A DNA stretch of 64,000 nt, from NCBI GenBank assembly GCA_964016885.1, contig OZ024742.1, positions 189,906,001 through 189,970,000 of the forward strand, written 5' to 3'. The first letter of the stretch is position 1; each line of letters begins with the position of its first letter. This DNA comes from Eledone cirrhosa (Eukaryota). Below the pieces are notes generated by a model that saw only the letters and a list, made by a program, of their open reading frames with translations, was not told where the DNA came from and made no database searches. Position numbers and translations under genes: made by a program. Below, piece by piece: positions 1,991 through 61,200 of this stretch.

Positions 1991-2008
1991 ATATATATAT
2001 ATATACAT

Positions 2009-2105
<97 letters not shown>

Positions 2106-2111
2106 CATGTG

Positions 2112-2228
2112 AAGGCGTGTGGCTGATTGATTAGAGAACTGGATTCGCAATTGTGAGGTTGTCAGTTCGATTCCTGGACCAGGCGATGTGTTATGTCCTT
2201 GAGCAAGACACTTTATTTCACGTTGCAC
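2112..2228 (+). mobile_element. tRNA-derived SINE with CORE-like central domain (partial)
   Basis: A-box-like TGGCTGATTG, B-box-like GTTCGATTCC, then GTCCTTGAGCAAGACACTTTA; relatives at 3081-3185, 7180-7415(-), 18781-19045, 30105-30430. Confidence 0.7.
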
Positions 2229-2671
2229 CTTCTACCTGTTGTTGCGACCGATAGAGAGTATTAGCAATTGGAAAGACCAACGGAAACATTCTTTCCTTGG
2301 TCTGATTTGACGAAAGTCGATCGACAAAAAAAATAATATACACCTTTTATGTTATGTTTTTTACCAAAGGGTAAAACTGATGAATCCGGTTAGTAAACGA
2401 TGATGCAATAAATTAAAGCACTCAACATTATGCAAATCATTGATGTGTTATCCCATGGCTGGTGCAGTAATGGAGTTAAATATCCATTAAAAACAACAAA
2501 AGGCCAGACTGAGAACTTTCTTTAAAACCATCCAGAATCATTCAGGGATGGTTTGCCATTACAATAACACCAAATTGTCGAATCATCCCTGAAACAAATC
2601 TATCCTCTATTTTCTATTCTTAGTTTGTGTTTGCCATTATCCTGTTATCTTATATAACTAATTCTGCAATC

Positions 2672-2747
2672 AACACCTGATGAAAACGTCTAGGTCTTAC
2701 ATCATGATCAGATGAGGAAATTCGGCCATTGAAATATGTATAGTATT
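2672..2747 (+). ncRNA. Type I hammerhead ribozyme motif (decayed)
   Basis: aacac-CTGATGA-imperfect stem II-GAAA-tatgta-TA-gtatt; downstream flank similar to 34553-34600(-). Confidence 0.5.
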
Positions 2748-2817
2748 TTCCCAGAATTAAAATTCTAAAGAAAGTTTCGAGTCTGGCCTCCTGTTGTTTT
2801 TAATGAATATATATTAA

Positions 2818-3020
2818 TTTAATATAGAAACGGCTTCTAGATGACTAGAACTGTTTCATTCGAAAGAAGTCATCAGAAAAGCCTTTCCTAATGATTTCTT
2901 TCAAATGAAACAGTTCTAGTTCTGTAGAAGCCATTTCTATATTAAATTTGATGTTTACACTCTTCTAATATATTGAGTACCTTACTTACTGTGTTGCCCC
3001 GATTGAACCCGGGACTCACA
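2818..3020. mobile_element. Short palindromic ORF-less element with an HHR motif in each arm
   Basis: Arms 2818-2880 and 2885-2945 are inverted copies; minus arm CTGATGActtctttcgaatGAAA, plus arm CTAATGAtttctttcaaatGAAA; right-side extension ends at (CT)n(TA)n; third copy 16141-16203. Confidence 0.6.
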
Positions 3021-3080
<60 letters not shown>

Positions 3081-3082
<2 letters not shown>

Positions 3083-3362
3083 CGAAAGGTTGTGAGTTCA
3101 ATTCTCAGGCCGGGTGATGTGTTGTTTCCTTGAGCAAGACACTTTATTTTACATTGCTCCAGTTTACTCAGCTGTAGAAATGAGATGATAGGGACTGGGG
3201 TCCATATCATTCCACTGCAAAGTGGTCATGGAGGTGCCATGGCAAAAAAGCACCCAGCACTCACTGTAAATGAGGTTGGTGTTAGGAAGGGCATCCAGCT
3301 GTAGAAATCAAGCCAGAATCAGTTCCCGGCCCACCCTTGCAAGCAGGGAACAGTGGGCGTAA
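3081..3362 (+). mobile_element. Composite SINE: CORE-like head plus RTE-type 3' tail
   Basis: 3170-3362 is near-identical to 33371-33565 and ends in the CCCTTGCAAGCAGGG...GGCGTAAAA tail. Confidence 0.65.
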
Positions 3363-3851
3363 AATTAATTTCAATAGTTATCTTAATGAAAAATGCTTTT
3401 TGTCGTACTGCTATCATATCAATGATAGGTTAAGTCCAATAACAGCCAAATAGGACATAAAGGATCTAGTTACAAACCCATAACATCTGACCTCAACTGG
3501 AAGCAATGTTACACAGTTATCTTCTGTTGTCAGATACTGCTATTTATTCCAAATAAAAGTTCTGGTTAATATTAGTGTTACTTACAAATACGTTAGAATA
3601 ACTATGTTAATTAATAAAATGTATCATTGTATATTTTGGTGTATGTGTGTTTTTTTAATGCTTATTAAGTATACAATTGTTTAGATTTTTTTAGGGGGGG
3701 GGGTAGAGTGAATGTGGAAAGAATCCTATCAATTTCATAAGCAATCAGTCAATATATTGATCTGAATTTAAAAAAAAAAATTTAGACATTAAAAAAATGA
3801 ATAGTTACTTTGGAAATAGACAAACAGAACAGAAACATAATCCACAGTTGG

Positions 3852-9053: not shown

Positions 9054-11814
9054 ATACTTTGGGAGGGTCATGTTGCCAATATGAAACGCATGCACCAGTT
9101 GCTTTCACTCCAATTTATTATAAAACAAATTATATATTTAAAAATTTATAAATTTCCAGTTGGTTGGTTGGTTCCACAGCCGGACGGTTGTTCATATATT
9201 GTCAAAGTTCTATCGTCACACATTCTGTGACCTCTTCAGTGACTGGGGGTTCTTTTCTTTGTTTTGTGCCTCTCCTTTGTTTTGTCCTACGCCATCTTGT
9301 TTTTGTGTGTGTGTTGTGTGCTTAGTTTGCGCATGTGTTACATCCGAGTGTCTGTGTGTGTTTTTATTTGTTTATTTACATGTTACTAGTTGGTTGTTTG
9401 TTCTATGTGTGTTTTCATTTTGTCCTTAATTATAAGTTGTGATGTTGCTATTCCATTCATGTTTTCTATTTAATTTTGGTTAGAGTTCATTTATGTTTAT
9501 TGCCTCTGTGATTTGTCTAAACATTGCGTCTTTTCTGTGTGAAGATTTTATTTTTATTTCTATGTTCTCTAATTTGCCCTTATGTTCTATTTTAGCATGT
9601 TGGTGGAGTACTGATGATTCTTTTCTATCTTGAATCTCTCACCAGTGTTCATTTAATCGTTCTCCTATACTACGAGCTGTCTCACCTATGTACACTATAT
9701 TCTTATCTTTACATTGTCCTTCAGTACATTTTATGCTATATACTATGTTTCTAGTTTTGCAGTTTACAGATTATGCATTTCTTATGTATTACTAATAAGT
9801 GTTTTTATGGAGGTACCTGTTCTTTCTACTATCTTAATATTTAGTTTAAGTTTATCTAGGGCCCTTCTAAATTTGTAAGCTAATTCACCTCTAGGGGTTG
9901 TATTGATGAACATTACACTCTGGTATTTATTGCTATCATACCATGAGTTTATTCTATTAACCTTATTCCTAGTTCTTTCTATTCTATTCCAAAGTTTGCT
10001 CCTATACAAGGAGCAGGTCCCATTTGTATCATTATTTACCATTTTTTCCCATTTGGTTCTGGCTCCTCTATATACTCTGATTTTATCTCTCTTATTGTAA
10101 CCAGAGAACTGCATACGGTGGATGAAGTGTTGTATGTGTCTCTCTAGTTCTTTGGGGTTGCACATGCGGGACACGTTTCTCACCACCCGTACCAAATCCG
10201 CAATCAGTATGTTGAATTTGGTGTGATCCGAAACAGCTGAGTTTCGGTGGATCAGATGTTTGGAAGTTATGGGTTTGGCATAATGGGAATGGAGGATTTG
10301 TTTTTGTTATTAATGGTTTCTAACCAGAGCTCTGTGTCTAGTACAGGTAATCGATGGTGGGGTGTTTGCTTGGGTAGTCTATAGTAACTCTAATACTCTG
10401 GTGGATGCTTTCCATGGTGTTTTTCTCTAATTCCTGACTGTTCTCTAGTGGGGGTATTTTTACTACGATGTTTAAATCATCAACGTAGCGAGAGTACCTT
10501 ATCAGGGTTAAGAGGTTGCTGTCTTCTAATTGTTCTTTAAGTTTATTGTCCCACCATACCATGAATAGGTTAGCTATGTCACCTACAATGCTAACACCAA
10601 TGGTTGCTCCCTCCTCTTGGGCATATGTTTTTCTATTAAATTTGAACATATGTTCCTTAAAGGTTAGTTTTATACTGGCCCCCACCGCATGTGCAATCAT
10701 TTTCTTTAGTTCATCATGGTTTTCCATGTATAGGAGCAAATTTTGGAATAAAATAGAAAGAACTAGAAATTCTCCTTGTATAGGATCAAATTTTGGAATA
10801 GAATAGAAAGAACTAGGAATTCTCCTTGTATAGGAGCAAATTTTGGAATAGAATACAAAGAACTAGGAATAAGGTTAATAGAATAAACTCATGGCATGAT
10901 AGCAATAAATACCAGAGTGTAATGTTCACCAATACAACTCCTAGAGGTGAACTAGCTTACAAATTTAGAAGGTCCCTAGATAAACTTAAACTAAATATTA
11001 AGATAGTAGAAAGACCAGGTACCTCCTTAAAAACACTTATTAGTAATACATACCCTTTTCAAAGACCTCCCTGTATAGATAAGAAATGCATAATCTGTAA
11101 ACTAAGCCCCCATATAAACTGCAAAACTAGAAACATAGTATATAGCATAAGATGTACTGAAGGAAAATGTAAAGATAAGAATATAGTGTACATAGGTCAG
11201 ACAGCTCGTAGTATAGGGGAACGGATAAATGAACACTGGCAAGAGCTTCAAGATAGAAAAGAATCATCAGTACTCCACCAACATGCTAAATTAGAACAGA
11301 GGCAATAAAGATAAAAGAACTCCAACCAAAATTAAATAGAAAACATGAATGGAATAGCAACATCACAACTTACAATTAAGGACAAAATGAAAACACACAC
11401 GTAGAACAAACAACCAACCAGTAACATGTAAATAAACAAATAAAAACACACACAGACACCCGGATGTAACACATGCGCAAACTAAGCACACACCACACAC
11501 AAAAACAAGATGGCGTAGGACAGAACAAAGGAGAGGCACAAGAAAACGAAAAGAATCCCCAGTCACTGAAGAGGTCGCAGAATGTGTGACGAAAGGACTT
11601 TGACAATATATGAACAACCGTCTGGTTGTGGAACCAACCAACCAACCGGAAAATTATAAATTTTTAAATTTATAATTTAATTTATAATAAATTGGAGTGA
11701 AAGCAGCTGGTGCGTGTGTTTTTTATTGGCAACATGACCCTCCCAAAGTATAACAATATCGGTTTCAACACACGTTTTCAGATAAAGAATCTTGCTAAAC
11801 AAATTCAGAAACGA
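9049..11814. mobile_element. Penelope-like element, lineage B, inverted (head-to-head) partial dimer in (TA)n
   Basis: Minus arm 9049-10730 (GATIGVSI, RYVDD, RMQFSGY, YIG); plus arm 10727-11760 (CIDKKCIIC, IVYSIRC, VYIGQT); mirrored 3' ends; extra tail 11761-11814; (TA)n on both sides. Confidence 0.92.
11562..11604 (+). ncRNA. Minimal type I hammerhead in PLE-B pseudo-LTR
   Basis: gtca-CTGAAGA-g-gtcgca/tgtgac-GAAA-ggac-TT-tgac; UU at the cleavage site is unfavourable; mirror copy 9201-9243(-) has GATA instead of GAAA. Confidence 0.6.
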
Positions 11815-25390: not shown

Positions 25391-26393
25391 CTCTTTCAAT
25401 TGCGCAGAGGGTTCTATAGAAATAGTGGACAGCTTCCGTTACCTGGGCGATAAAATCAGCAGTGGGGGAGGGTGCTCTGAAAGTACTGTAGCTAGAGTCA
25501 GAACTGGTTGGAAAAAGTTCAGAGAGCTTATACCACTATTAGCTGCTAAAGGGTTCTCACTAAAAATGAAAGGCAGGTTGTACGATGCCTGCATACGAAC
25601 AGCAATGCTGCATGGCAGTGAGACCTGGGCATTGTGTGCAGAGGATATACGCAGACTAGAGAGGAACGAAGCTTGCATGCTCCGCTGGATGTGTAACAGT
25701 AATATACGTGAACGGCAAAGCATAAACGAACTAAGGAAAAAATTAGAGATAAGAGGGATCAGATGTTGTTTACTCGAGAGAAGGCTACGTTGGTATGGAC
25801 ACGTGATGCGCATGAAAGTCGATAGCTGTATAACAAAGTGCAGGGCAATAAAGATAGACGGTAGTCACGGAATAGGCAGACCTAGAAAAACCTGGGACGA
25901 GCTGATAAACTCCGACATCACACACTTACACCTCTCCAAGACAATGTCACTGGACCGAGACCTTTGGCGGTACTCAGTAACAGAGAAGACCCGCCTTACC
26001 TAAATACAAAGTAAAACCTACTACAGTCAGTAGGCATCTCTAACAAAATACACCCCCGTCCCACCACCCCCACCCCATCCACACCGCCCCTTTCAATGTA
26101 AAGTTATGTTGGTGCCACAAAATCCAGGCCGAAACAAATGAGATCGTGTAGGTGTCACGACAAAAAAACACACAGTCCACGCTGTAATGTGGCCGTGTAG
26201 GCAACACGGTAAAAACCTCCCAGACCCACACTGTAAATGTGGTTGGTGTTAGGAAGGGCATCCAACTGTAGAAAACCTGCCAGACAGTCCTATGCGAGCA
26301 AGACAATCACTCTTGCCTCAAGTGGGACTACCCCCGTCCAAACCCATGCAAGCGTGGAACACGGACGTTAAACGTTGATGATGATGATGATGA
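25391..26393 (+). mobile_element. RTE-clade LINE, 5'-truncated (RT thumb/C-terminus + 3' UTR + (GAT)n)
   Basis: ORF 25425-26003: FRYLG, MLHGSETW, RRLRWYGHVMRM, GRPRKTW; starts at (TA)n. Confidence 0.9.
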
Positions 26394-26539
26394 TATGTTC
26401 AGAAGAGATTATATATATATATATATGAACGTATGTATGTATGTATGTATGTATGTATATGTAGGTACATATGTATGTACGTATGAATATAAATGTATGC
26501 ATATAAATGTTTTGTATATATATATACATATATATATAC

Positions 26540-26612
<73 letters not shown>

Positions 26613-26613
26613 C

Positions 26614-27141
26614 ATCATCATCATCATCATCATCATCATCGTTTAACGTCCGTGTTCCACGCTTGCATGGGTTTGGACGGGAGTTTTCCCACTTGAGGCA
26701 AGAGTGGTTGTCTTGCTCGCATAGGACTGTCTGGCGGGTTTTCTACAGTTGGATGCCCTTCCTAACACCAACCACATTTACAGTGTGGGGCTGGGAGGTT
26801 TTTACCGTGTTGCCTACACGGCCGCATTACAGCGTGGACTGTGTGTTTTTTTGTCGTGACACCTACACGATCTCATTTGTTTCGGCCTGGATTTTGTGGC
26901 ACCAACATAACTTTACATTGAAAGGGGCGGTGTGGATGGGGTGGGGGTGGTGGGACGGGGGTGTATTTTGTTAGAGATGCCTACTGACTGTAGTAGGTTT
27001 TACTTTGTATTTAGGTAAGACGGGTCTTCTCTATTACTGAGTACCGCCAAAGGTCTCGGTCCAGTGACATTGTCTTGGAGAGGTGTAAGTGTGTGAGGTC
27101 GGAATTTATCAGCTCATCCCAGGTTTTTCTGGGTCTGCCTA
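26614..27141 (-). mobile_element. Inverted second copy of the same RTE 3' end
   Basis: Reverse complement of 25875-26393 with few differences. Confidence 0.9.
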
Positions 27142-35830: not shown

Positions 35831-36038
35831 TAACGAAGGAAATGTGGTAAGGAACCAGGTGGACCATAACGCACCAAAGTACTCAATACTTAGGGTAGTA
35901 GAGTGGGTAATAGGAACGAGTAGGACCCCAACGACTGAGCTCAAGCCGTTTCGATGGCTAATTCTGGACGGCTAATTCAGTCCAGAATTAGCCGTCGAAA
36001 CGGCTTGAGCTCAGCCGTCGGGGTCCTACTCGTTCCTA
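35831..36038. mobile_element. Short hairpin element in (TA)n carrying the 3' half of a hammerhead
   Basis: Inverted arms 35911-35969 and 35980-36038; GAAAcggct..agccgTC; second copy at 63651-63845. Confidence 0.75.
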
Positions 36039-36179
36039 TATATATAGATATATATATATATATATATCATCATCATCATTTAACATCTAATATATATATA
36101 TATACATACAGTCTGAAGCTAGTAGTTGAAATGGCAAGAGCACAGTTGTTAGGCCCCGACTCTTTCTAATAAACTCTAC

Positions 36180-36519: not shown

Positions 36520-39326
36520 AGTGCGTTACATCCACCGCCAATCGCTTCCAGTCGCGATCCACCGGGAGGCTTCCCATTTCGTGCACACCCGGGATGGGAT
36601 CAATGGACTGACATCGGATGCAACCTCTAACCACACTTTGAACACTGTCTGTTAACGTCCGAGTCGATTCTCCTGGCTAGGAACAGGGTCCTATCCACTC
36701 CCATGAGGTGCATGTCATGCAACCCTTTCAGATCCGACTCGGTCAGCTGACACACGGCAGCTATCTCCTCTTCTACCTCCTCCGGCGCTTCCATCCAGGC
36801 TTTCTTCACCCTGGTTAAGACGTCCACCCTATTTTTCTCTGAGGGCATGAAAACTATGCTCAGCCTCAGGTCGAACTCGGTGGCCAGCTCTCCTAAAGTT
36901 CCCAGGCGGCGTTTTATCAGCATCTCCGCCGCCCCTCTCGTTCACACTCTCTTCTCACTGGTGAGCACTGATCTCACCCATCCGAGTACAGTAACCGAGT
37001 TGGTGCGTATCTCGATGGTGTGCAGTCCCCACCTCAGGGCGAGGTTCACCCCTCTCAACACCGCATCCAGTTCGGCCACATTGATGTGGTTGCAGTCGTC
37101 CTTCTTCCTAAGTCAGGCTGCATCCTCGACCTCAACACCTCCTATCTCCAATGTGACACCCAGCACTATGCTGCTGGCATCGCACCATACGATCCCGCTC
37201 TGCGATTTGGGAACATACCAGCATCCCCGCACTGGGTCGTCGGCCTTCACCTTCTCCACGATCTCCTGCATCATGGCCACCATCCTCTCTTCCACTCTGT
37301 CATTCCAAGTCACCCCTCCCGCTTGTCTCTTGACATAGCTGCATCCCATCCGGAGCCACCCACCAACTTTCCACACACCGAGAAAAGCTCCCGCCTACTC
37401 ATACTTGGGCCCAGTTCTGGAACTTCATTTCCCCTCTGGAATACCAAGACGCCCGTCCTGTCTCGCCGTAGCCTAAGTCCCAGCGCGGCTCCTCCCTCCA
37501 ATGCTTCTGATGGCTTCGCAGCCAGTCCATCCCCATGTAAATGGCTCGTGACCTCCGCCGCCGACACTACAGACTCGTCCACTAGGATGTCGTCAATGTA
37601 GGAATTAGTGGCCCTCTTCATCTTGTCGGCCTTTGCCAGAATGGTCTTGAGGACCGCCGCCATGATCTTCGGTGCAGAGCTCAGCCCCAAACCGAGCCTG
37701 GTCAGGCAATATGTCTGGCCCTTATACCTGACCAGCTGATACTGCCAGAGCTTCTCATCTATATGAAATTGCAAGTATGCCGACTTTAGATCTATGATTG
37801 CGGAACCCCCCCCCCTCCCGTCATGCGTCTCCACTCACGCAGGGTTTCCCCACAGACATCCGTGACCTCACTACCCGTGTGGCATGACACATGCTCGTTC
37901 AGCTCCCAAAAGTCCAGTACTGGCCTCACCTTGTTCTTCGTGGGTTGTGCCACCGCCATTAACGGCAATACTCCGCACTTCACCTCCTCTTTCCAGGGAA
38001 GCAGAATGCCCTCCTCAATCCATCTCTCTACCTCTCGCTCAAATTCGCTCCTAATGTCTCCCTTCAATGTGTGTTGATAGCAGCCCACTTTGTTCTTCAG
38101 TGTTGGTGGTTCTCCCCTCCAGTACCACTCAACAACCCATCGTTGCCCATCGAACACGGCCTTGAAGTCTTTGTCCTGCACAGTGTAAGCGGGGTATTTC
38201 TCCTCATGGGCCTTCTGGTTCTCCTGTCGCGTACTCACAGCGCATACCGATGCTGCACCGTTAAACGACACACCGACGTTGTTCACTGTGATGCATCCTA
38301 GACAGCCAATTGCGTCCATGCCCATAACCACGCCAATCCCATCCACCACGTTGTCAACTACGATGGCAGAAAGCCTTATTTTCCTTCCCTGTACCGCCAT
38401 CTCCAGCTCGCTGCGACCTCGGCATTCAATTTTCCTGCCGTCGACTGCCCTTATGTTGCTCTTCCCTCTCCACCTCTGCGCCACCCCTGCAGTCACCAGT
38501 GTTGTCGTACAGCCCGTGTCCACGAGGGCTCGCTGTGGCTTTCCCCTCACGAAGACTTCCACCACGGGCAGCGCCTCTACTCGTAGGCAACTACCGGCGC
38601 AGTAGTTCCCCTTGGATCGTTTCCCTGGTCGCAGTTAGTAGCGCTGTGGCCTGGTCACTTACACCGGTAGCATATTATTTCCAGCCTTGACTCTATACAG
38701 TCTCTCGCCATGTGCGGGCCCTGGCACCTAAAACAGCGACCTCTAAACGTTTGCGGGCGACCGCGTGCCGTGGTTGCCTCCCTTTCCCCATTTCGCTGCC
38801 AGCTGTCTTGAGCCTCTGTAGTTGCTATCGCCACGACACTCTTCTTGGCATCTTCTGCTATGATGCAGGCTTGCTCCACCAGTGAACGCATCTCCATTTC
38901 TTTGTAACCCGGGAATTGCTGCAGTTTCACCGCTATGTCGTCTGGAAATCCATTTATGAATGCTAACCGCACCGTGCGTTCGCATTCTGCCTGATATCCA
39001 GCCAACATGGCCAATCGCCGTATTTCCGCTGCGAAAATGTCAACGCATTCACCGTTCCATCTAATCCAGCTTAGCAAAGCGGCTAACGGTCCCTCTACGA
39101 ACGCTTCCATCATGCGCCTCTCAATCTTTTGCGGATCCCTTTGGCTGTGTTCATCCAACTCAAGGAAGAGTACCAATGCGTCCCCCTTGAGGTACAGTGC
39201 CATGAGGCCAGCCACATCTATCTTCTGTAAGCTTTAGACCAGCCGGACTTCTCGCAGCCAAGCGATAACATCGCCTTCACCGGTGAATGCCTTAATCGCA
39301 TCGCTCATTCGTAGTCTCGTCGCCAT
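36520..39326 (-). mobile_element. Ty3/Gypsy-type LTR retrotransposon internal region (gag-PR-RT-RH-partial IN), pseudogenised
   Basis: gag from ATG 39326 with CFRCQGPHMARDC and CYRCK*PGH knuckles; ALVDTG protease; SYIDD RT; WCDAS RNase H; zinc-finger remnant and LAVDVTH integrase start, then truncation. Confidence 0.9.
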
Positions 39327-44138: not shown

Positions 44139-44500
<362 letters not shown>

Positions 44501-46180
44501 AAAAACAATGATCAGGTAAGAAAAATGGTCGCACATGCAATAGGGGCTAGTATAAAAACTACCCTAAAGGGCCACATATTCAAATTCAACGAGAAGATCT
44601 ACACCCAAAATGAGGGAGCAGCCATTGGCGTCAGCATAGCTGGTGACGTTGCCAACCTTTTTATGGTATGGTGGGAAAGGAGACTCAAAGATCTCCTTGA
44701 TGAGAGCTCCATAGACCTCATCATGTACTCTCGTTACGTAGACGACATCAATATAGTAATAAGGATATCCCCACAAGAGAGCACTAACAAGTTTAATTTA
44801 GAACGTAGCACAATGGAAAGCATCCAGCAGATAGCTAATTCCATACACCAGAGTATAACTGTAACTATCGACTACCGTTCCAAACACCCTAACAATAGAC
44901 TACCTGTATTAGCCACGGAACTCTGGATTAACACTATAGACGAGAGAGCCCAAATTCTCCACTCACACTATGCTAAACCCATGGCCTCCAAATACCTCAT
45001 ACTCAAAAACTCAGCAATGTCCAGTAGTGCTAAGTTTAATATTCTGATCGCAGACTTGGTACGAGTGATGAAGTACGTGTCCCGCATGTGCGACACAACA
45101 GAAATGGAAAGACACATCCAACACTTCATCAACCGCATGCAGTTCTCTGGCTACAACCAAAGAGACAGAATCAGAGTATACGAAGGAGCCACGGAGAAGT
45201 ATAAGACCCTCTTAGAACTGGACATGAAAGGAATTTGCCCATTATACAGGAGAAAATCATGGAATAGCTTAGATAGGACTAGACATAAGATAGGGAAAGC
45301 TACCTCATGGTACAACAACCAGAGATACCAGAGTATCATATTTGTGGACGCTACCCCTGGAGGGAAATTAGCTAACCAGTGTAGAAAGGCCCTGAGAAAG
45401 ACCCACTTAAAGATTCAGGTGGTAGAAAAGCCAGGAACCACCATAAAATCCCTGATCAGCAAAACCTACCCTTTTAAGAAAACCCACTGTACTAATAGGA
45501 AATGTATCATATGTAAAGTAAACCCCCGGATAAACTGTAAAACTAGAAACGTAGTCTATAGCATAAGATGTACAGAGAAACATGACAACAACATACATAG
45601 GCGAGACAGCTCGCAGCATAGGTGAAAGGATAGACCAACACTGGGAGGAACTAAAAGGACGAAAAATCGGTTCAGTACTATACGAACATGCCAGACAACA
45701 ACACGACGGTAACATAGACAACATAGAAATTAGAATAATATCTAAACATAGAAATGACCCAGCAGATAGGCAAATCAGAGAGGCCAGCGAAATAGAACTT
45801 AGAAGGCCAAGGCTAAACAGAAAAAATGAATGGAATAACAACAACACCCTAACAAACAACACTGACCTAAGAGAAGTATAAATAAATAAATAAATAAATA
45901 CATACACAAGCACAATAACAACAAACACATATAAACACACACTAGTAAACTAAGATAGAATACAATAACCAATACACAGTCACCCAAACACGAACACATC
46001 AAACAAAACACTATACATACACGCAAATGCATGCGCAGAGAAGACAAAATAATAAACAAATAAATAAATAAACAAACAAAATAAAGATGGCGTAGGCATA
46101 CAATACAACGGGAGGAAACATAATAGCACCACTGACGATGTTGCAGATGTGCAACGAAAGAACTTTGTTAGACTATATAT
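44501..46180 (+). mobile_element. Penelope-like element, lineage B (second subfamily), 5'-truncated
   Basis: ORF 44525-45625 (GAAIGVSIAG, YSRYVDD, RMQFSGY, CTNRKCIIC, VVYSIRC); frameshifted EN 45582-45881 (YIGET, EH..H, REASEI). Confidence 0.92.
46127..46170 (+). ncRNA. Minimal hammerhead motif at PLE 3' end
   Basis: CTGACGA-t-gttgca(gatg)tgcaac-GAAA-gaac-TT; stem I is weak. Confidence 0.55.
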
Positions 46181-48979: not shown

Positions 48980-51690
48980 AATATACATTCTTATTTGCAT
49001 GCGCATATATGTATTTTTATACTCAGATATAAACACCCAAACATATATACACCTACCTACATATATATTCATACATACACGCTTACAAATACAGATGATA
49101 ATAGTATGGGGGAAAGGGGGGGTGGAGAAGGGGATTATAGTAAATATATGTTTCAAGAAACATAGAATATTAATCTGTATTTGGATCTCAATATATGTTT
49201 TTACATAGTTTCAGTGTTAGGAAATGCAAGAAATAAGGCAAAATTATTCATTTCAAAATAAGTATACCATTAATTATAGGTTAACTAAACTAAAGATAGT
49301 TAACATATTGATTTCTAAGGTGTAAATTAGTTAGGTTTATAATATTTGAAGCAGAATTTTGAAGTTAAATAGTAGTAGAGTATTAATTATAGTATAACTA
49401 AATTAAAATTATTAACGTTATGGTATCAATATTAGGAATTGAATTTAGTAATAGGGAAAAAACAAATAAAGTATTACATCGGTAGTAGAATATAAATTAT
49501 AGGTTAACTAAATTAAAAATTATTTATTAATTTCTGTAGTATATGTTAATTAGGTATATAATAAATAAAACAGATATTGTATTTTATCAATAGCAGAATA
49601 TAATTATATGCAAATAGAAATCAAAATTAATATATATACATATACATATACATACACATATATATATATATACACATATATATACATACATACACATACA
49701 TATACATACATACATATACATATTTTTTCAAAAATCGCAAAGAATATATTAACTAGGTATACATCCAAAACACATCCCATTCTATGATTACATGACACTC
49801 TGCAATCCGTCTGTATTAGGATACTAATTTTAAGCCAATTAAATTAAATTTTTAGGTTGACTAAATTTAAAACCAAATTATAAATATATTTCTAAAATGT
49901 ATATTAATTAGGTCTATAATACTAAAAATTATTTCTCTGTCATTGAATACACGATATTTTGTTATATTTTATCTGTAAAGGAATTTTAATAAAGGGTTAA
50001 ATAAATTAAAATTAATCTATAAATTAAATTACTAAGTATATATTAGTAATATTTAAAGGTTTTTCACAATTTATGATTACACAATATTTTATATTCTCAT
50101 CTGTAGTAGAATTTTAATTAAATTAAATTTATAGGTTAACTAACATTTAAATTAAATTATATATTAATTTCTAAAATAATGTTATTAATTAGGTTTATAA
50201 TATTTAAATGTTTTTTTTAGTTTATGATTACACGATATAATTAATTCCTGTCGTTTATTTAATAGGATATCCTTAGATTTCATTATTTCAAATAGTTCTT
50301 GGGAACATAATCTACATTCATTTCTATTATTTTGATAAGGGGTGGCTCTTTTGAGCACACTCCAGGTCAAATCATATTCTATATTCTTATTTTTATAACT
50401 ATTGATTTTTTCTGCTAGAGATGTTGTATTAGCCAGTGCGGCATTTTTAAAACTATGCTTGTGGGTATTAAACCTTGTCTTAAAATTGTTAGAAGTAGCT
50501 CCTATATATGAGCAAATAGAATCTTTAGTTTTAACATTACATTTATAGACTATGTTGTTAACAAGACAATTCCCTTTTAATGGGCAGTTTGCTTTGTTTC
50601 TACAGTTACAACCTTTCGTTAATTCTGTATTTGAGGAGATATTATGGTTAGTTTGGTGTATTGGTGGTATACTTATGGTTTTCTTACATTTATATGCATT
50701 ATAGGCACTTATATTTTGTTTTATGTTATTTGTTGTTGAGTATGAGAATTTAACTGTAGACCTATTTAAGATTTGATGGTATTTGTGGTTTGGCGGGAAG
50801 TTTTTCTCTAGGATATAAAAAAATTTTTTAGCAATATTATCCTTAATTTGTAAATTAAATGGAGCATTATACCAAGTAACCCGTCTATTACGGTTTCTAT
50901 GTTGTTTATTATTTTTATTATTTTTATAGGTTGTATCGTGATGTTTACTAGGAGGATGTGTGTGTGTGTATGTATGTTCGTAATTATGTGTATGTTTATG
51001 CATATACGCGCGTGTGTGTGTGAGTGTACGGATATGTGTGAGTATGTGAATATGTGTATACACTTATTTCATATTTATGTGTCTATACGCATTTTATCTG
51101 TGGATTATAAACTTACAAAGACATTAGCCTTGAATTTTTGTATTTGCATACATCTTTTTGGCATGCGTATGCATGTTGAGCATATATCTTTGTATAAATA
51201 TGTGTACGAAGTTAATTACATGTATATACACACACCAAACTGCATAAAATTGTTTGTATTTTCATTGGTCAATTTGAACTCCGTTCCCAAACGGACCGGA
51301 AATTTTGAATTGTTGTTATTATCAATAAATATATTTCATTATTTCTGAAGACGGCATATATGTGTGTTTGGTATGTATATTTAATCTTGATAGTTTGTAT
51401 AATTTTGTATAATTTTGTACATAGATCTGTTGAATATGCATGCCAATTCTAACACATATATATCCTAGAAACGATCGTTAAATAATGAACTTTTTTTGTT
51501 TAATATAAGGAACTGTTTCATTGTTTTATTCATTATTTGTTTAATATTTTATCTTGACTCTGAATTCCGTTTATCTTTCACCGAAAGTGATTTTTCATTG
51601 CATCTCTTCTTTCCATGATATCCGGAATACATTGAGTTCTTCATACGGATTGGACACTACCGTAAACTCTTGGTAGATTTATCTACATAA
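46408..51690 (-). mobile_element. PLE lineage A copy: GIY-YIG end plus long 3' region, bounded by a ~600-bp inverted repeat
   Basis: ORF 50185-50950(-): VTWYNAPF, CNCRNKANCPLKGNC, IVYKC, SYIGAT, CRLCSQE, SCNH; 46408-47013 is the reverse complement of 50955-51550. Confidence 0.85.
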
Positions 51691-51704
51691 TTATATATAT
51701 ATAC

Positions 51705-51757
<53 letters not shown>

Positions 51758-51857
51758 TATATACACATATATATATATATGTATATATATATGTATATAT
51801 ATATATATACATATATATATACACATATATATATATATGTATGTATATATATATATA

Positions 51858-52647
51858 TTAAGACAGGAGGGAAGAAAAAATGGCTTCACTTGTGCTTTCA
51901 ACAAATTTATTTTCTTCACAAAATCCCAAAAGAATTTTTCTTAAAAAAATTATTTCATAAATTAAGTTGTTGGTTGTTGGTGAGGTATTGTTTCGTTTTT
52001 AGAAAGACCTTTCACGCTGAGGTGCGCTTGTCAAACTGATGTGTATGTGGTGTGTTGTTCTATATATAGGGATTTAACATGTCTGTGGTGTGGTAGGGGT
52101 TTCTTTTCTCCCCCTTTAATAAGTGCATGGGTGTAGGTGTGTTGAAAAAGTGTTCATAGCAGTAATGAGTTGAGACGGTGAGTAGGGTTGGGTGGGGAGA
52201 AACTTAGAAAGTGCGGCCTGCCCCGGTCATTCTCGAAAAATTCCTTTATTCAGGGGAAAAAGCTTTTAGCATCGCTTTTGTGTTGAGAATGGTCACAGGC
52301 AAATCGCACCTGTCAAGCTTGTGAATAATTATTTTTTCTTTTTTTCCTGAAGAATTTGGGGAGAAAAGAAACCCCTACCACACCACAGACATGTTAAATC
52401 CCTATATATAGAACAACACACCACATACACATCAGTTTGACAAGCGCACTTCAGCGTGAAAGGTCTTTCTAAAAACGAAACAATACCTCACCAACAACCA
52501 ACAACTTAATTTATAAAATAATTTTTTTTAAGAAAAATTCTTTTGGGATTTTGTGAAGAAAATAAATTTGTTGAAAGCACAAGTGAAGCCATTTTTTCTT
52601 CCCCCCTGTCTTAATATACCTAACTGTACCAAGGATTACACATATTT

Positions 52648-52652
<5 letters not shown>
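51858..52652. mobile_element. ORF-less inverted-repeat element in (TA)n (PLE pseudo-LTR-like)
   Basis: Arms 51858-52113 and 52358-52614; 38-bp extension on the right. Confidence 0.8.
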
Positions 52653-52682
<30 letters not shown>

Positions 52683-52708
52683 CATATATATATATATATA
52701 TGCATATA

Positions 52709-52880
<172 letters not shown>

Positions 52881-53054: not shown

Positions 53055-54136
<1,082 letters not shown>

Positions 54137-54376: not shown

Positions 54377-55153
54377 AATATTAAGGATACTATTTATAGT
54401 TATGTATATTTTAAAATATAAACAGGGAAGGTCAGAAATGTATTACTACCTTATTACCAGTAAGATAAATACCTCAATGTAATAACATCAGTTGTTCTCC
54501 AGAGCAGTTATATAGAATTCACAAGAATCAAAGCTATGTTCAAAGCATTTATTCACTTACAATTGTTTCATCCAAACCTAGGCTTGGAATCTTCGGAGCA
54601 TTTTTCGATGTTTGTACATATAATTGACTTCCTAATCAACGCAGGAGACATGCAGATACATATATATATATTCATGTACAGTGGAGTGACATGTATTATA
54701 CTATACTATATTTGTACAGCAATTCAAATTTAAAATCAAAATCAAAATTAAAATACATGTGGCAGATAACACAGATAATGTAAGGGGATAGTTTGATAAT
54801 CAGATCTAGTAGATAGTGTATGCGTTAGTCTAACGCATACACTATCTACTAGATCTGATTATCAAACTATCCCCTTACATTATCTGTGTTATCTGCCACA
54901 TGTATTTTAATTTTAATTTTAATTTTGATTTTAAATTTGAATTGCTGTACAAATATAGTATAGTATAATAAATGTCACTCCATTGTACATCAATATATAT
55001 AAATGTATCTGCATGTCTCCTGCGTTGGATAGGAAGTCAATTATATGTACAAACATTGAAAAATGCTCCGAAGAAAACAAGCCTAGGTTTGGATGAAACA
55101 ATTGTAAGTGAATAAATGCTTTGAACATAGCTTTGATTCGTGTGAATTCTATA
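54377..55153. mobile_element. ORF-less palindromic element in (TA)n with HHR variants
   Basis: Arms 54508-54827 and 54829-55153 with almost no spacer; HHR motifs at 54554-54600(-) and 55063-55110(+). Confidence 0.8.
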
Positions 55154-55414
55154 TACATATATATATATATACATATATATATATAAACATATATACATAT
55201 GAATTTTAGTACAGCATTGCCGAAGCTTTAGTTTGCGGCCAAGTTAACGAATGCAAATTCGGTATATAGCTTTAGCACTCGAATGGGAATAGTACCCCCA
55301 GAGTAATAGCAATACGTTTAGACAGCTTAGCAAATGGAATATAGCGATCGGCAGTCCAGCCGCATTACCACAGCAACGAAAATACAGGACTCAGGAAAAG
55401 ATTTTAGACATATA

Positions 55415-55478
<64 letters not shown>

Positions 55479-55481
<3 letters not shown>

Positions 55482-55946
55482 ATAAAAAGATGGTTAAAAG
55501 AGTTCCCTGTATTTTATTATGCGCATTTCAAAAACAAATATCATCATGCAATAACATTTACGTTTTCGTCAGATAAAATAGGGAGACATGTCTCCCTATT
55601 TTATCTGACGAAAACGTAAATGTTATTGCATGATGATATTTGTTTTTGAAATGCGCATAATAAAATACATGGAACTCTTTTAACCATCTTTTGATCTTAT
55701 ATATTATTTATACTCCAGTCCTACAAACAACATCTCAACTTACATGTCTCCCTATTTTATCTGACGAAAACGTAAATGTTATTGCATGATGATATTTGTT
55801 TTTGAAATGCGCATAATAAAATACATGGAACTCTTTTAGCCATCTTTTGATCTTATATATTATTTATACTCCAGTCCTACAAACTGTAGAGTGCTTCTTA
55901 TCCGATATCTGCATTGCTTTATTGTACTACAATAAAACTCACCTCC

Positions 55947-55949
<3 letters not shown>
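55479..55949. mobile_element. Triple-hammerhead mini-element in (TA)n
   Basis: Inverted copy 55479-55588, direct copies from 55589 and 55743 (156-bp period), unique tail to 55949. Confidence 0.85.
55597..55667 (+). ncRNA. Type I hammerhead, intact (identical copies at 55753-55823 + and 55510-55580 -)
   Basis: tattttat-CTGACGA-long stem II-GAAA-tgcgca-TA-ataaaata; perfect 8-bp stem I; AUA cleavage after 55659. Confidence 0.85.
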
Positions 55950-56012
<63 letters not shown>

Positions 56013-56046
56013 CATATATACATATATATGTATATATATATATATA

Positions 56047-56082
<36 letters not shown>

Positions 56083-56101
56083 TACATATACATATATATA
56101 C

Positions 56102-56132
<31 letters not shown>

Positions 56133-56153
56133 CATACATATACATATATATAC

Positions 56154-56194
<41 letters not shown>

Positions 56195-56261
56195 CTTATA
56201 TATATACATATACATATATATACATATATACATATACATATATATATATACATATATATAC

Positions 56262-56292
<31 letters not shown>

Positions 56293-56321
56293 CATATATA
56301 TACATATATATATACATATAC

Positions 56322-56434
<113 letters not shown>

Positions 56435-56553
56435 CATATATATACATATAGATACATATATATATATACATATATATACATATATATATATACATATATA
56501 TACATATATATATATATACATATATATACATATATATATATACATATATATAC

Positions 56554-56588
<35 letters not shown>

Positions 56589-56589
56589 C

Positions 56590-56739
<150 letters not shown>

Positions 56740-56762
56740 GTATATACATATATATACATATA

Positions 56763-58800
56763 TTTCGTTTCTGAATTTGTTTAGCAAGATTCTTTATCTG
56801 AAAAAGTGTATTCAAACCGATATTTCTATGCTTTGGGGGGGGGGGTCATGTTGCCAATAAGAAACACACCCACCAGTTGCTTTCACTTCAATTTATTATA
56901 AATGAAATTTATAAATTTAGGAATTTATAAATTTCCGGTTTGTTGGTTGGTTCCACAAACAGATAATTGTTTATATATTGTCAAAGTTCTTTCGTCACAC
57001 ATTCTGTGACCTCTTTAGTGACTGGGGATTCTTTTCTTTGTTTTTGTGCCTCTCCTTTGTTCTGTCCTACGCCATCTTGTTTTTGTGTGTGTTGTGTGCT
57101 TAGTTTGCGCATGTGTTACATCCGGGTGTCTGTGTGTGTTTATATTTGTATAATTATTTGTTTATTTACATGTTACTAGTTGGTTGTTTGTTCTATGTGC
57201 GTGTGTGTTTTCATTTTCTCCTTAATTGTAAGTTGAGATGTTGTTCCATTCATGTTTTCTATTTAATTTTGGTTGGAGTTCATTAATGTTTATTGCCTCT
57301 GTGATTTGTCTAAACATTGCGTCTTTTCTGTGTGTAGATTCTATTTTTATTTCTATGTTCTCTAATTTACCCTTATGTTCTATTTTAGCATGTTGGTAGA
57401 GTACAGATGATTCTTTAATATCTTGAAGGTCTCGCCAGTGTTCATTTATCCGTTCCCCTATACTACGAGCTGTCTGACCTATGTACACTATATTCTTATC
57501 TCTACATTGTCCTTCGGTACATCTTATGCTATATACTACATTTCTAGTTTTACAGTTAATATGGGGGCTTATTTTACAGATTATACATTTCTTATCTATA
57601 CAGGGAGGTATTTGAAAAGGGGATGTATTGTTAATAAGTGTTTTTTATGGAGGTACCTGGTCTTTCTACTATCTTAATATTGAGATTATGTTTACCTAGG
57701 GCCCTTCTAAATTTGTAACCTAATTCACCTTTAGGGGTTGTATCGATGAACATTACACTCTGGTATGTATTGCTATCATACCATGAGTTTATTCTATTAA
57801 CCTTATTCCTAGTTCTTTCTATTCTATTCCAAAATATGCTCCTATACAAGGGGCAGGTCCCATTTGTGTCATTATTTACCATTTCTACCCATTTGTAAGC
57901 TAATTTAGAAGGGCCCTAAATAAACATAAACTCAATATTAAGATAGTAGAAAGACCAGGTACCTCCGTAAAAACACTTATTAGCAAGACATACCCTTTTC
58001 AAAGACTCTCATGTATAGATAAGAAATGTATAACCTGTAAAATAAGCCCCCATATTAACTGTAAAACTAGAAATGTAGTGTATAGCATAAAATGTACTGA
58101 AGGACAATGTAGAGACAAAAATATAGTGTACATAGGTGAGACAGCTCGTAGTGTAGGGGAACGGATAAATGAACACGGGCGAGACCTTCAAGATAGTAAA
58201 GAATCATCTGTACTCTACCAACATGCTTAAATAGAACACAAGGGTAAATTAGAGAACATAGAAATAAAAATAGAATCTACACACAGAAAAGACGCAATGT
58301 TTAGACAAATTACAGAGGCAATAAACATAAAAGAATTACAACCAAAATTAAATAGAAAATATGAGTGGAACAGCAACATCACAACTTACAATTAAGGACA
58401 AAATGAAAACACACACACACATAGAACAAACAACCAACCAGTAACATGTAAATAAACAAATAAATAAATGAACATAAACACACACAGACACCCGGATGTG
58501 GCGCATGCGCAGACTGAGCACACAACACTCACACAGAAACAAAATGGCGTAGGACAGAACAAAGGAGAGGCACAGAAACAAAGAAAGGAATCCCCAGTCA
58601 CTGAAGAGGTCACAGAGTGTGTGACGAAAGAACTATGACTATATATAAACAACTATCTGGTTGTGGAACCAACCAACCAACCAACCAGAAATTTATAAAT
58701 TTATAAATTTATTATAAATTTATTATAATAAATTGAAGTGAAAGCAACTGGTGCGTGTGTTTCTTATTGGCAACATGACCCTCCCAAAGTATAACAATAT
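56763..58800. mobile_element. PLE lineage B inverted partial dimer (same subfamily as 9049-11814)
   Basis: Minus arm 56820-57895, plus arm 57895-58800; GIY-YIG ORF pieces (YIGQT, RQITEA); tail 56763-56820. Confidence 0.92.
58596..58640 (+). ncRNA. Minimal type I hammerhead, intact core
   Basis: agtca-CTGAAGA-g-gtcaca/tgtgac-GAAA-gaac-TA-tgact; mirror copy 56980-57023(-) has CTAAAGA. Confidence 0.72.
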
Positions 58801-59070
58801 ATATTATAGATATATATTATATATATTATATATATATTATATATATATTACATATATATATATTATATATATATATTATATATATATATACTATATATAT
58901 GTATATATATTATATCTATATATTATATATATATTATATATATATATATTATATATATATATATATATTATATTATATTATATAATATATATAATATATA
59001 TATATATAATATATATATATATAATATATATACATATATATAATATATATATATATAATATATATATATA

Positions 59071-61200
59071 TTCCGACCTTACGGATGCTGAAATTAAAAT
59101 TATTATGGAAGCGAGGAAAACTATTGTTAAATTTGATGATAGCTACTGGGTTCGCAAAGATAGACCTTCTTATTTTGATGTTACTATGGGTTCCAATGAT
59201 TCGGCGGAAGTAACAGATCTTGTGGGAATTTATATCACCCACAGACTACAAGGAAAATTCAAGGATCTCCACGGTGGAATCTACCGTGACGATGCGCTCC
59301 TATTAGTTAAGCATATGAATAACGAGAATTTAGAATGTATGCGTAAAAAAATCAGAAAGCTTTTTAAGGAACCAGGATTAAATATTACATTTGAATATAA
59401 CCTCAAAGAGGTCAATTTCCTTGATGTTACTTTGAATCTCAATACAGAAACGATTAAACCGTTCCATAAACTAAATGAGAACCTTAAATATGTAAATACG
59501 AGTTCTAACCATCCACTCTCTATAATTAAATCCATCCCTAGAAATGTTTCTCATAGAATCTCCCGCCTGTCGTCCAACCAACAAACCTTCAAAGACATGC
59601 CGAATATTATGATGATGCACTTAGGAAGGCCGGACACCTAGATAATATAGAGTATATAGTCGAAGATCACCAAAACACCCAAAATAAATCCCATAGGGGT
59701 AGAAATAGCACAGAATCACCACCATACATACACTACCGCAATAGACACAATAATAGTCGCACACCACCAAACAGAAGGCGATGTAAAGAGTATATATGGT
59801 ACAACCCGGTCTATAACAACTCTATTAAAACCAATCTACCCTCACAATTCTTTCGATTAGTTAAAAAACACTTTCAAACATCACATAAATATAATAAAAT
59901 CTTAAACCCTAACACTATTCGACTTTCATATTCAACCGCCCCTAATATTGAACAACATATAAAAAAGCTAACGCAAAACGGTTGTATAAACGCCTTCCAA
60001 CACATTACAATACACGTAAAACATTAGCTATAACATCACAAAACAACAAACAACATCCCGTCCTACCTAAGCAACCTCATCAACCCATCCATGCCAATAC
60101 AACAACGCAAAATTATAACTGTAACTGTGTCCAACCAGGAATGTGTCCGTTGAACAATCAGTGTCTTGAACGCAACATAATATACAAATGTACTATCGAA
60201 TCGGATAGACAGAAGTGGTACTATGTGGGATCTACAGCCACCTCCTTCAAATCACGCCTTTATAGACATCGTTACTCGATAAAACATGAAAACCAGCGTT
60301 ATGTAACAACACTCGCAGACAAGGCTTGGCAGCTGCGTGAAAATAACCAACAATTTAACCTAAAATGGGATATTATAGCGGCTGCCCCTCCATGTTTCCC
60401 ACGGACAGGAATTTTGTAAATTATGTAATATGGAATTATTTTGTATTATGAAATCCAAAAACATTTTATTAAATAACAGAATAGAGCGATCGTTATACTG
60501 TAACCATCGCTTAAAATCTACATTTTCATATTACAAATACTACCAGGATTGAACGCCTGTCTCCATCTCCGTTTGATTGTCAAAATACATATTAACATTC
60601 TCTATTAGTCTTAATTCTATCAACTCTTCTATTATTTACCATTTAATATAAACTGCTATAGATAAAATGAGATTTCTTAATTCAATTCCCTAATGCATAT
60701 ACCAGCTGGCTACTAGCATTGATGTTATTCAATAGCAGTCGAAATCTCCCGCTTCCTTAATTGACACTTTATAATTAATACTACTACACCAAATGTCCAG
60801 CCCTGTCCATTGTTCAATTGGTCAAGTATAGATTAAAATAGGCACTCCCAAAAATTCTTATTTAGATAAAATAAACCATTTACTCATTGTATTCTCATTA
60901 GACACCCTTTATATACTTGTTTAGCAGTAAATTGAATTACCATCTGTCATATACTATCCCCTCTCTTCTTCCTCTATTACAACTTATATAAATATTTCAA
61001 TTTTTCTGATTTTTTCCAATTTATCCAAAATCTCTGAAGAAGTGACAACTGATTATACATTTGCTATCGAATACTTGCTAACATTATATGATTACGCAAG
61101 CAGCAATACATAGGTATTCCGTCTGTTACAGAAACATATGTCAATACCTAATAAATTCCTTTATTTTTAAAAAAGCACTTTCATTTTATATTCATCTTTT
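59071..61200 (+). mobile_element. PLE lineage A copy, 5'-truncated, frameshifted
   Basis: VTMGS, GIYRDD, VNFLDV, IWYNP, CNCVQPGMCPLNNQC, IIYKC, YYVGST, final stop near 60552; (TA)n on both sides. Confidence 0.92.

Follow-up and report, generated by a model that had tools for sequence, protein, structure and literature searches.

A triple-hammerhead locus of Eledone cirrhosa is probably a fold-back insertion of a Hydra-type Penelope-like terminal repeat carrying a single-copy duplication

The window analysed here is a 64,000-nt stretch of the Eledone cirrhosa genome (GCA_964016885.1, contig OZ024742.1, 189,906,001–189,970,000, forward strand). Within it the segment 55479–55951 sits between two (TA)n runs, a microsatellite at 55410–55478 that is the likely insertion target and a (TA)n-rich microsatellite at 55950–56763, and consists of terminal repeat (pLTR) sequence of a Penelope-like element (PLE) in three pieces. 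The leftmost piece, a 5'-truncated inverted arm on the minus strand (55473–55588), has no tail, carries two private mismatches and stops at the short end of the family (about +45 to +53 from the cut). It meets the plus-strand sequence at a 4-nt palindrome native to the family (55587–55590), likely the self-priming site, and the larger palindrome centred on 55588|55589 has arms of about 116 bp with two mismatches. Direct copy 1 (55586–55728, plus strand) holds 143 nt of pLTR and ends at +69, which is neither of the two normal ends of the family. A filler of 13–14 nt that is foreign to the family (55729–55742, plus strand) separates it from direct copy 2 (55743–55951, plus strand), which ends at the long end of the family (+136) and has one private change relative to the sister copy L002 described below; a tail of about 83 nt (55868–55951, plus strand) is present on this arm only. 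The two direct copies are identical at 142 of 143 bases, and the tandem is composed of a 143-nt repeat plus the non-family filler, with 1.9 units present.

Each piece contains a type I hammerhead motif, located at 55510–55580 on the minus strand in the inverted arm (predicted cut after 55518) and, on the plus strand, at 55597–55667 in copy 1 (predicted cut after 55659) and 55753–55823 in copy 2 (predicted cut after 55815). All three display an 8-bp stem I made up entirely of A/U, the core boxes CUGACGA and GAAA, an AUA triplet and a palindromic stem III (8 nt including A15.1 and U16.1). The sequence bears out an earlier note on this DNA in its description of one inverted and two tandem direct hammerheads, with a palindrome centred at 55588/9 and plus-strand cuts predicted 156 nt apart. 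The stem II that the note called long is indeed long, but it is imperfect: the catalytic register opens with A-U rather than G10.1-C11.1 and contains a C.U mismatch at pair 4. Similarly, the 156 nt proposed as a unit is the spacing of the cuts, whereas the repeat that belongs to the family is 143 nt and the filler is not part of it. Rfam returned no match at the gathering score in the window, and no hammerhead family was matched at E ≤ 10; the hammerheads are therefore called from the anatomy of the motif together with its family context. The miRNA-type Rfam matches obtained at E ≤ 10, below the gathering score, were hairpin-driven and caused by the palindrome, and were rejected; a sigma-70 promoter scan was set aside as inapplicable to an animal genome. 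The motif is not a chance occurrence, as a 28-nt stretch taken from the ribozyme is found 21,395 times without mismatch in the 3.0-Gb genome (G000) and its reversed control not at all. The 50 of 90 window frames that were scanned revealed no host gene, only transposon domains, although small exons could be missed.

The hammerhead motif is the pLTR of a PLE, a context overlooked in the earlier reading. A DNA search of the same genome gave at least 45 matches (40 of 103 candidates having been scored) spread over many contigs, of which only the window copy spans all 156 nt, the others ending at or before position 145. One locus, L032, retains the order pLTR, broken ORF (1250–3647) and pLTR, with 3,707 nt between its predicted cuts and terminal sequences that are 95–98% identical to 55743–55951. 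Here the hammerhead is in the sense orientation relative to the ORF, and the first ATG of this frame-broken ORF lies 215 nt downstream of the first cut. The frame is broken in every copy read, and encodes an RT (YRDD box) followed by a GIY-YIG-type domain (Y-F-G-S-T endonuclease box). When the natural frames of L032, L033, L036, L038 and L039 were translated separately, they displayed DKT, YRDD, CxCX5C, CxxC before a conserved E and CxH after a conserved N, and neither DKG nor CX2-5CxxC was present in them. The N-terminal RWK motif reads RLRWI in both of the copies that include this part, a sample of two copies only. Seven parent frames gave no relevant Pfam match, and the parent frames and a homolog went unrecognised in a PDB search. 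A homolog search identified 200 unnamed proteins of about 700 aa that share 33–42% identity with the parent; among six that were read, RWK or RWR occurs in five, and Pfam RVT_1 matched one, below its cut-off. On the evidence of these motifs and homologs the parent is an EN+ PLE, with RT and GIY-YIG between pLTRs.

The available text of Craig et al. (2021, PMC8557442) characterizes the Hydra clade by DKT in place of DKG, a CxCX5C linker, CxxC and CxH around the conserved E and N, the lack of CX2-5CxxC, an N-terminal RWK motif and a preference for insertion into (TA)n. By eye, the parent frames agree with the Hydra rows in Fig. S7 of that paper, as far as the figure was available, and not with those of Penelope, Neptune or Nematis. 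Naiad and Neptune, which were considered first, were ruled out by domain order and motifs. The motifs indicate that the parent is likely to belong to the Hydra clade. It shares with the clade as described in PMC8557442 the RT followed by a C-terminal GIY-YIG-type domain, the DKT, CxCX5C, CxxC and CxH signatures, a type I hammerhead close to the 3' end, insertion into (TA)n, truncated copies in inverted orientation and a tail at one end only. It differs in reading RWI instead of RWK and in the about 1.1 kb that lie between the end of the ORF and the ribozyme. In contrast to PLEs in the published accounts available, its unit is 3.7 kb rather than <3 kb and its tail is about 83 nt rather than 30–40 bp. 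The ribozyme sequence, with its 15-bp stem II and perfect 8-nt stem III palindrome, is unlike the 26 Hydra rows of File S2 of Craig et al. that were accessible. Core boxes are intact in 82 of 86 ribozyme copies, and the family is, as judged from sequence, likely a young and very abundant Hydra-type PLE with a hammerhead. A search of the literature, covering mostly openly available papers, found none on this Penelope-like family.

The geometry of the insertion was compared with 55 other 3-kb loci, chosen by likeness to two queries, from 69 that were fetched. The 14 excluded loci comprise the finding itself (L001, L003 and L031), the other copy in the window (L040), duplicates (L023 and L056) and long refetches (L032–L039). 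Selection by likeness biases the end of the matched arm, not that of its partner. Head-to-head ribozyme copies are present in 27 of the 55 loci. These loci contain 87 ribozyme-bearing pieces, of which 43 end near +53, 43 at the long end and one between, and the next 16 bases are TA-rich in 73. The long end lies at +139 on the L032 query, which carries a 3-nt insertion, and at +136 in the window, and the two 3' ends of the family are about 83 nt apart. Adjacent head-to-head pairs combine one short and one long end in 24 of 26 cases, and the other copies mostly fold back at a different short palindrome near −123. The first 100 listed of the 21,395 28-mer matches, all on one contig (C1), form 37 neighbour pairs within 8 kb, comprising 29 head-to-head, three tail-to-tail and five same-strand pairs. 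These data show that the fold-back arm, the tail and the (TA)n target are the norm of the family. They are in line with the published Penelope pattern, in so far as the sources were accessible, which includes truncated copies in inverted orientation, partial tandems, a tail at one end only and palindromic junctions; published in vitro work, likewise seen in part, connects the tail with two sites at which the RT starts. The insertion is young because the sister copy L002 is nearly identical to both direct copies, matching copy 1 over 142 nt and being one base off copy 2 and its tail. A second copy of the family in the window (44256–44500), with its ribozyme on the minus strand, belongs to a diverged subfamily, is 89% identical and has its own fold-back centre.

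The window is dense in head-to-head insertions. Further fold-back palindromes occur at 54509–55155, 25873–27141, 51674–52818, 35910–36039 and 2816–2948, and hammerhead-like boxes accompany some window palindromes (near 2876, 16198, 46615 and 51345). Fragments of three more elements (626–1990 and 50206–50913 on the minus strand, 59072–60525 on the plus strand) share 32–57% amino acid identity with the parent ORF, and by these sequences the window is home to several Hydra-like families. Another Penelope-like family, with an RT and then a GIY-YIG frame (weak Pfam matches), occupies 56504–59071, 9583–11298 and 44483–45878; it forms long fold-backs and has its own hammerhead-like motif near 58601 (+), 11566 (+), 9239 (−) and 46132 (+). 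A 274-nt direct repeat with 665-nt spacing at 53099–54037, between two (TA)n runs and with a CUGAUGA box at 53461 (−), is a partial tandem of a non-coding element, and 36630–39233 on the minus strand is a fragment resembling an LTR retrotransposon, with matches to aspartyl protease, RT and DUF7047.

The feature that sets the locus apart is the junction between the direct copies, which is unique and contains a locally matched filler. A 29-nt pattern across it has one match in 3.0 Gb, and the tandem arrangement, whose absence elsewhere the earlier note had named as telling against its reading, is absent from the other genomic copies examined. A same-strand partner at 156 nt was found at none of the 55 other loci and in none of the 37 close neighbour pairs, in which the five same-strand neighbours are 3,334–7,477 nt apart. 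A second same-strand ribozyme occurs in four of the 55 loci, at about 341, 410, 624 and 1,573 nt, and the entry at 143 nt in the same-strand table (L020) is a partial copy without the CUGA box. The same-strand counts in the 55 loci come from a survey that replaced a regular-expression list of direct pairs, dropped as the palindromic motif also matched the opposite strand. The filler with its flanks (55726–55744) is a 19-nt exact match to 57227–57245 on the minus strand, 1.5 kb away, just past the GIY-YIG frame (57225–57644, minus strand) of the other Penelope-like family, and its ends share 3-nt and 2–3-nt microhomologies with this donor. Shuffles predict 0.01 matches for the filler 19-mer at two mismatches, and it has four exact matches genome-wide, including the junction and 57227–57245. 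The copy at 57227–57245 is the most likely source of the filler, since it matches the 19-mer exactly, unlike the other two copies of the donor repeat in the window, which depart from that sequence at two positions. Contigs from public runs depart from the reference at 55728 and rejoin it at 55743 in family sequence; no contig from six such runs of unrecorded kind bridges the filler, which is evidence neither way.

The sequence of the junction suggests that the 143-nt duplication likely arose in place. Templated insertions of <25 nt that are copied from flanking DNA are a mark of polymerase-theta repair, according to the portion of a review that was available (PMC12426944). The filler resembles the products of polymerase-theta end joining described there in its length of <25 nt, its flanking origin and the minimal pairing at both ends; here, by contrast, the donor is 1.5 kb away and the insert lies inside a 143-nt tandem duplication. 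The distance of the donor does not separate DNA repair from RT jumps, and the repair enzyme is not identifiable from sequence.

The predicted folding of the transcript depends on whether the inverted arm is included. Folded without the arm, 55589–55949 adopts a double-hammerhead topology, with probabilities of 0.89–1.0 for the stem III between the copies and 0.71–0.84 for the crossed stem I. When the arm is included, one copy pairs with it at a probability of 1.0 and the dimer helix falls to 0. The proposal in the earlier note that the tandem pair supplies a dimer partner in cis is consistent with the predicted fold of the pair by itself, but in the whole insertion the inverted arm is predicted to sequester one copy. 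A read-through transcript would contain a duplex of about 116 bp, which would leave one dimer partner unavailable; according to the folding model, some cleavage may be possible when transcription begins at the centre 55588|55589 or beyond it. In the predicted lowest-energy fold the register of stem II slips and pairs C7, G8, A9 and G12; the energies, −34.6 (slipped) against −24.2 kcal/mol (cores held open) for the pair and −10.1 against −1.8 kcal/mol for the monomer, overstate the advantage of the slipped register, as the folding program ignores core and tertiary contacts. Across 64 distinct copies 97.4% of stem cells are paired, mostly by one-sided wobble changes, and in stem II seven of 15 pairs vary on one side only and three on both. 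Covariation in these copies was not above shuffles (22–184 of 500), and the slipped register scored alike.

In the accessible text of Cervera and de la Pena (2014, PMC4209133), PLE hammerheads cleave weakly in vitro, even as dimers, and pairs on opposite strands 100–700 bp apart were already noted. One published PLE hammerhead, in the part of the account available, needed the protein of the element, and its cut site coincided with neither the start nor the end of any read. The motifs described here resemble the dimer-acting PLE hammerheads of the available sources (PMC4209133; Lunse et al. via PMC6765202) in being type I, in lying in the pLTR and in combining a short palindromic stem III with a long stem II. 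They differ in their 8-bp stem I, in having no extra base after A9, in A-U or G-U rather than G-C at 10.1-11.1 and in the conserved C.U mismatch of stem II.

We are rather confident that the locus is a 5'-truncated fold-back insertion of a high-copy Hydra-type PLE terminal repeat together with a single-copy 143-nt duplication, likely made in place. It is likely ordinary transposon debris and not a new circular-RNA element. By analogy with the known Penelope cycle, the endonuclease of the element would have cut the (TA)n run, and reverse transcription would have begun at two sites about 83 nt apart, giving the short and the long end. The aborted cDNA may then have folded back at the 4-nt palindrome to give the head-to-head arms. 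Subsequently a DNA end at 55728 would have copied 13–14 nt from 57227–57245 by means of the 3-nt microhomology, and the copied end would have been joined again to the beginning of the arm, with duplication of 143 nt. The third hammerhead is present because of this single-copy duplication. In the full-length element the ribozyme would cleave at two sites one unit (3.7 kb) apart, the first of them about 215 nt upstream of the ORF; its job likely belongs to that element, and at this locus it is likely a passenger.

How the duplication and the filler were made is the less certain part of this reading, and we favour, with some reserve, polymerase-theta-type repair or replication template switching over RT jumps during insertion. 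The RT-jump alternative involves the same element and departs from the preferred reading only at the junction step, where the RT would have jumped from the RNA to nearby DNA or a transcript and back. It is a possible, less probable, course of events. For Penelope elements the sources available describe joins at microhomology, template jumping and the capture of sequences between pLTRs, and the direct copies differ at one of 143 positions and the arms at two of about 116, which implies that the events are close in age. Against such jumping, the direct copies have an identical starting base, as fits the copying of one from the other, the end of copy 1, at +69, coincides with neither RT start site, and the size and local origin of the filler are typical of repair insertions. 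The tandem could also be an artefact of assembly beside a palindrome and long (TA)n runs, since palindromes and microsatellites are hard to assemble according to the literature available. This we consider very improbable, as neither a filler with microhomology on both sides that matches a single diverged copy nearby, nor the base by which the direct copies differ, would be expected from a collapsed or doubled repeat.

The remaining alternatives ascribe a function to the tandem. The locus might be a newborn, single-copy retrozyme, in which a chance duplication created a double hammerhead in cis that releases and circularises a 156-nt RNA. Animal retrozymes, in the accounts accessible to us, are tandem repeats of 150–450 bp with low GC whose expression yields linear and circular RNA, and they have been argued to originate from pLTRs (Li et al., bioRxiv 10.64898/2026.07.22.740005, available in part). 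A 156-nt unit of 29% GC fits this range. Together with the predicted double-hammerhead fold of 55589–55949, the partial cleavage of dimeric PLE hammerheads in the available text of PMC4209133 and the presence of retrozyme-like arrays in the same genome, this speaks for the idea. We nevertheless regard it as improbable. There is no second copy of the junction in 3.0 Gb; the truncation 72 nt before the cut would leave little upstream pLTR for a promoter; the inverted arm is predicted to pair fully with one copy; the slipped register of stem II is predicted to be favoured by about 5 kcal/mol per copy, in a program that ignores core contacts; PLE hammerheads are weak in vitro, as described above; and the unit has no long 3' end of the family. 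Reads of less than about 100 nt from a 156-nt circle would in any case be indistinguishable, by their sequence, from the genomic tandem. The earlier suggestion of a retrozyme-like element with a 156-nt unit could further be read as an established family of which the locus is one array, given that two tandem intact hammerheads pass the minimal screen in the accessible text of Li et al. This is the least credible of the readings, as the junction is single-copy in the assembly, just one of the 45 matches covers the 156 nt fully and the 156-nt spacing recurs neither at the other loci nor among the close neighbour pairs. Retrozymes are recognised by intact type I hammerheads in two or more tandem units, which the locus has in its 1.9 units, and by a dispersed family of monomers, dimers and multimers, whereas this junction has a single match in the genome. 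Compared with the animal non-LTR retrozymes in the available text of Cervera and de la Pena (2020, PMC7229834) and Li et al., the locus shares two tandem type I hammerheads, a length in the 150–450-nt range, low GC, the non-coding character and a relation to pLTRs, but it is one copy with 1.9 repeats and a locally templated junction.

Arrays with a fixed unit do occur elsewhere in the genome. A 310-nt non-coding unit is repeated about 10.7 times, identically, in L033 (1423–5055, G000:C77), where it is flanked by (TA)n, and is found again in L035 (1–568); each unit has one type I hammerhead with a palindromic stem III. The 310-nt ribozyme has 4,251 exact matches, the first 100 of which fall into 10 clusters at a fixed spacing of 310 nt, and nine of these first 10 clusters are a minus-strand run followed by a plus-strand run, a divergent head-to-head arrangement. 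A 469-nt unit (L032:5199–8173, G000:C8) has 1,471 exact matches and forms tandem and head-to-head arrays between (TA)n runs; its canonical type I hammerhead has G10.1-C11.1 and a 7-bp stem I. L035 contains a further hammerhead-like motif at about 877, 1803 and 2244 (−), two of which are 441 nt apart, possibly a third array family. In blastn neither the 310- nor the 469-nt unit matches the parent element. Their fixed units at many loci mark the 310- and 469-nt families, at the level of sequence, as retrozyme-like, and the arrays of the 310-nt family have the geometry of Penelope-type insertions. Divergent head-to-head arrays would be the expected trace of Penelope-type reverse transcription round a small RNA circle. 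Among the mostly openly available papers that were searched, none on head-to-head retrozyme arrays was found.

The locus itself matters little, as one of many thousands of truncated copies, and the 310- and 469-nt array families are a better lead than the 156-nt tandem. The Penelope-like family has a modest use, in that its two sharp 3' ends, 83 nt apart, would allow the two-start-site model of insertion to be tested in a clade other than Poseidon. If a 156-nt RNA were nevertheless released here, it would be a datable example of the origin of retrozymes from pLTRs, and the chance duplication would represent the first step through which Penelope-like ends may have given rise to the 310- and 469-nt hammerhead arrays.
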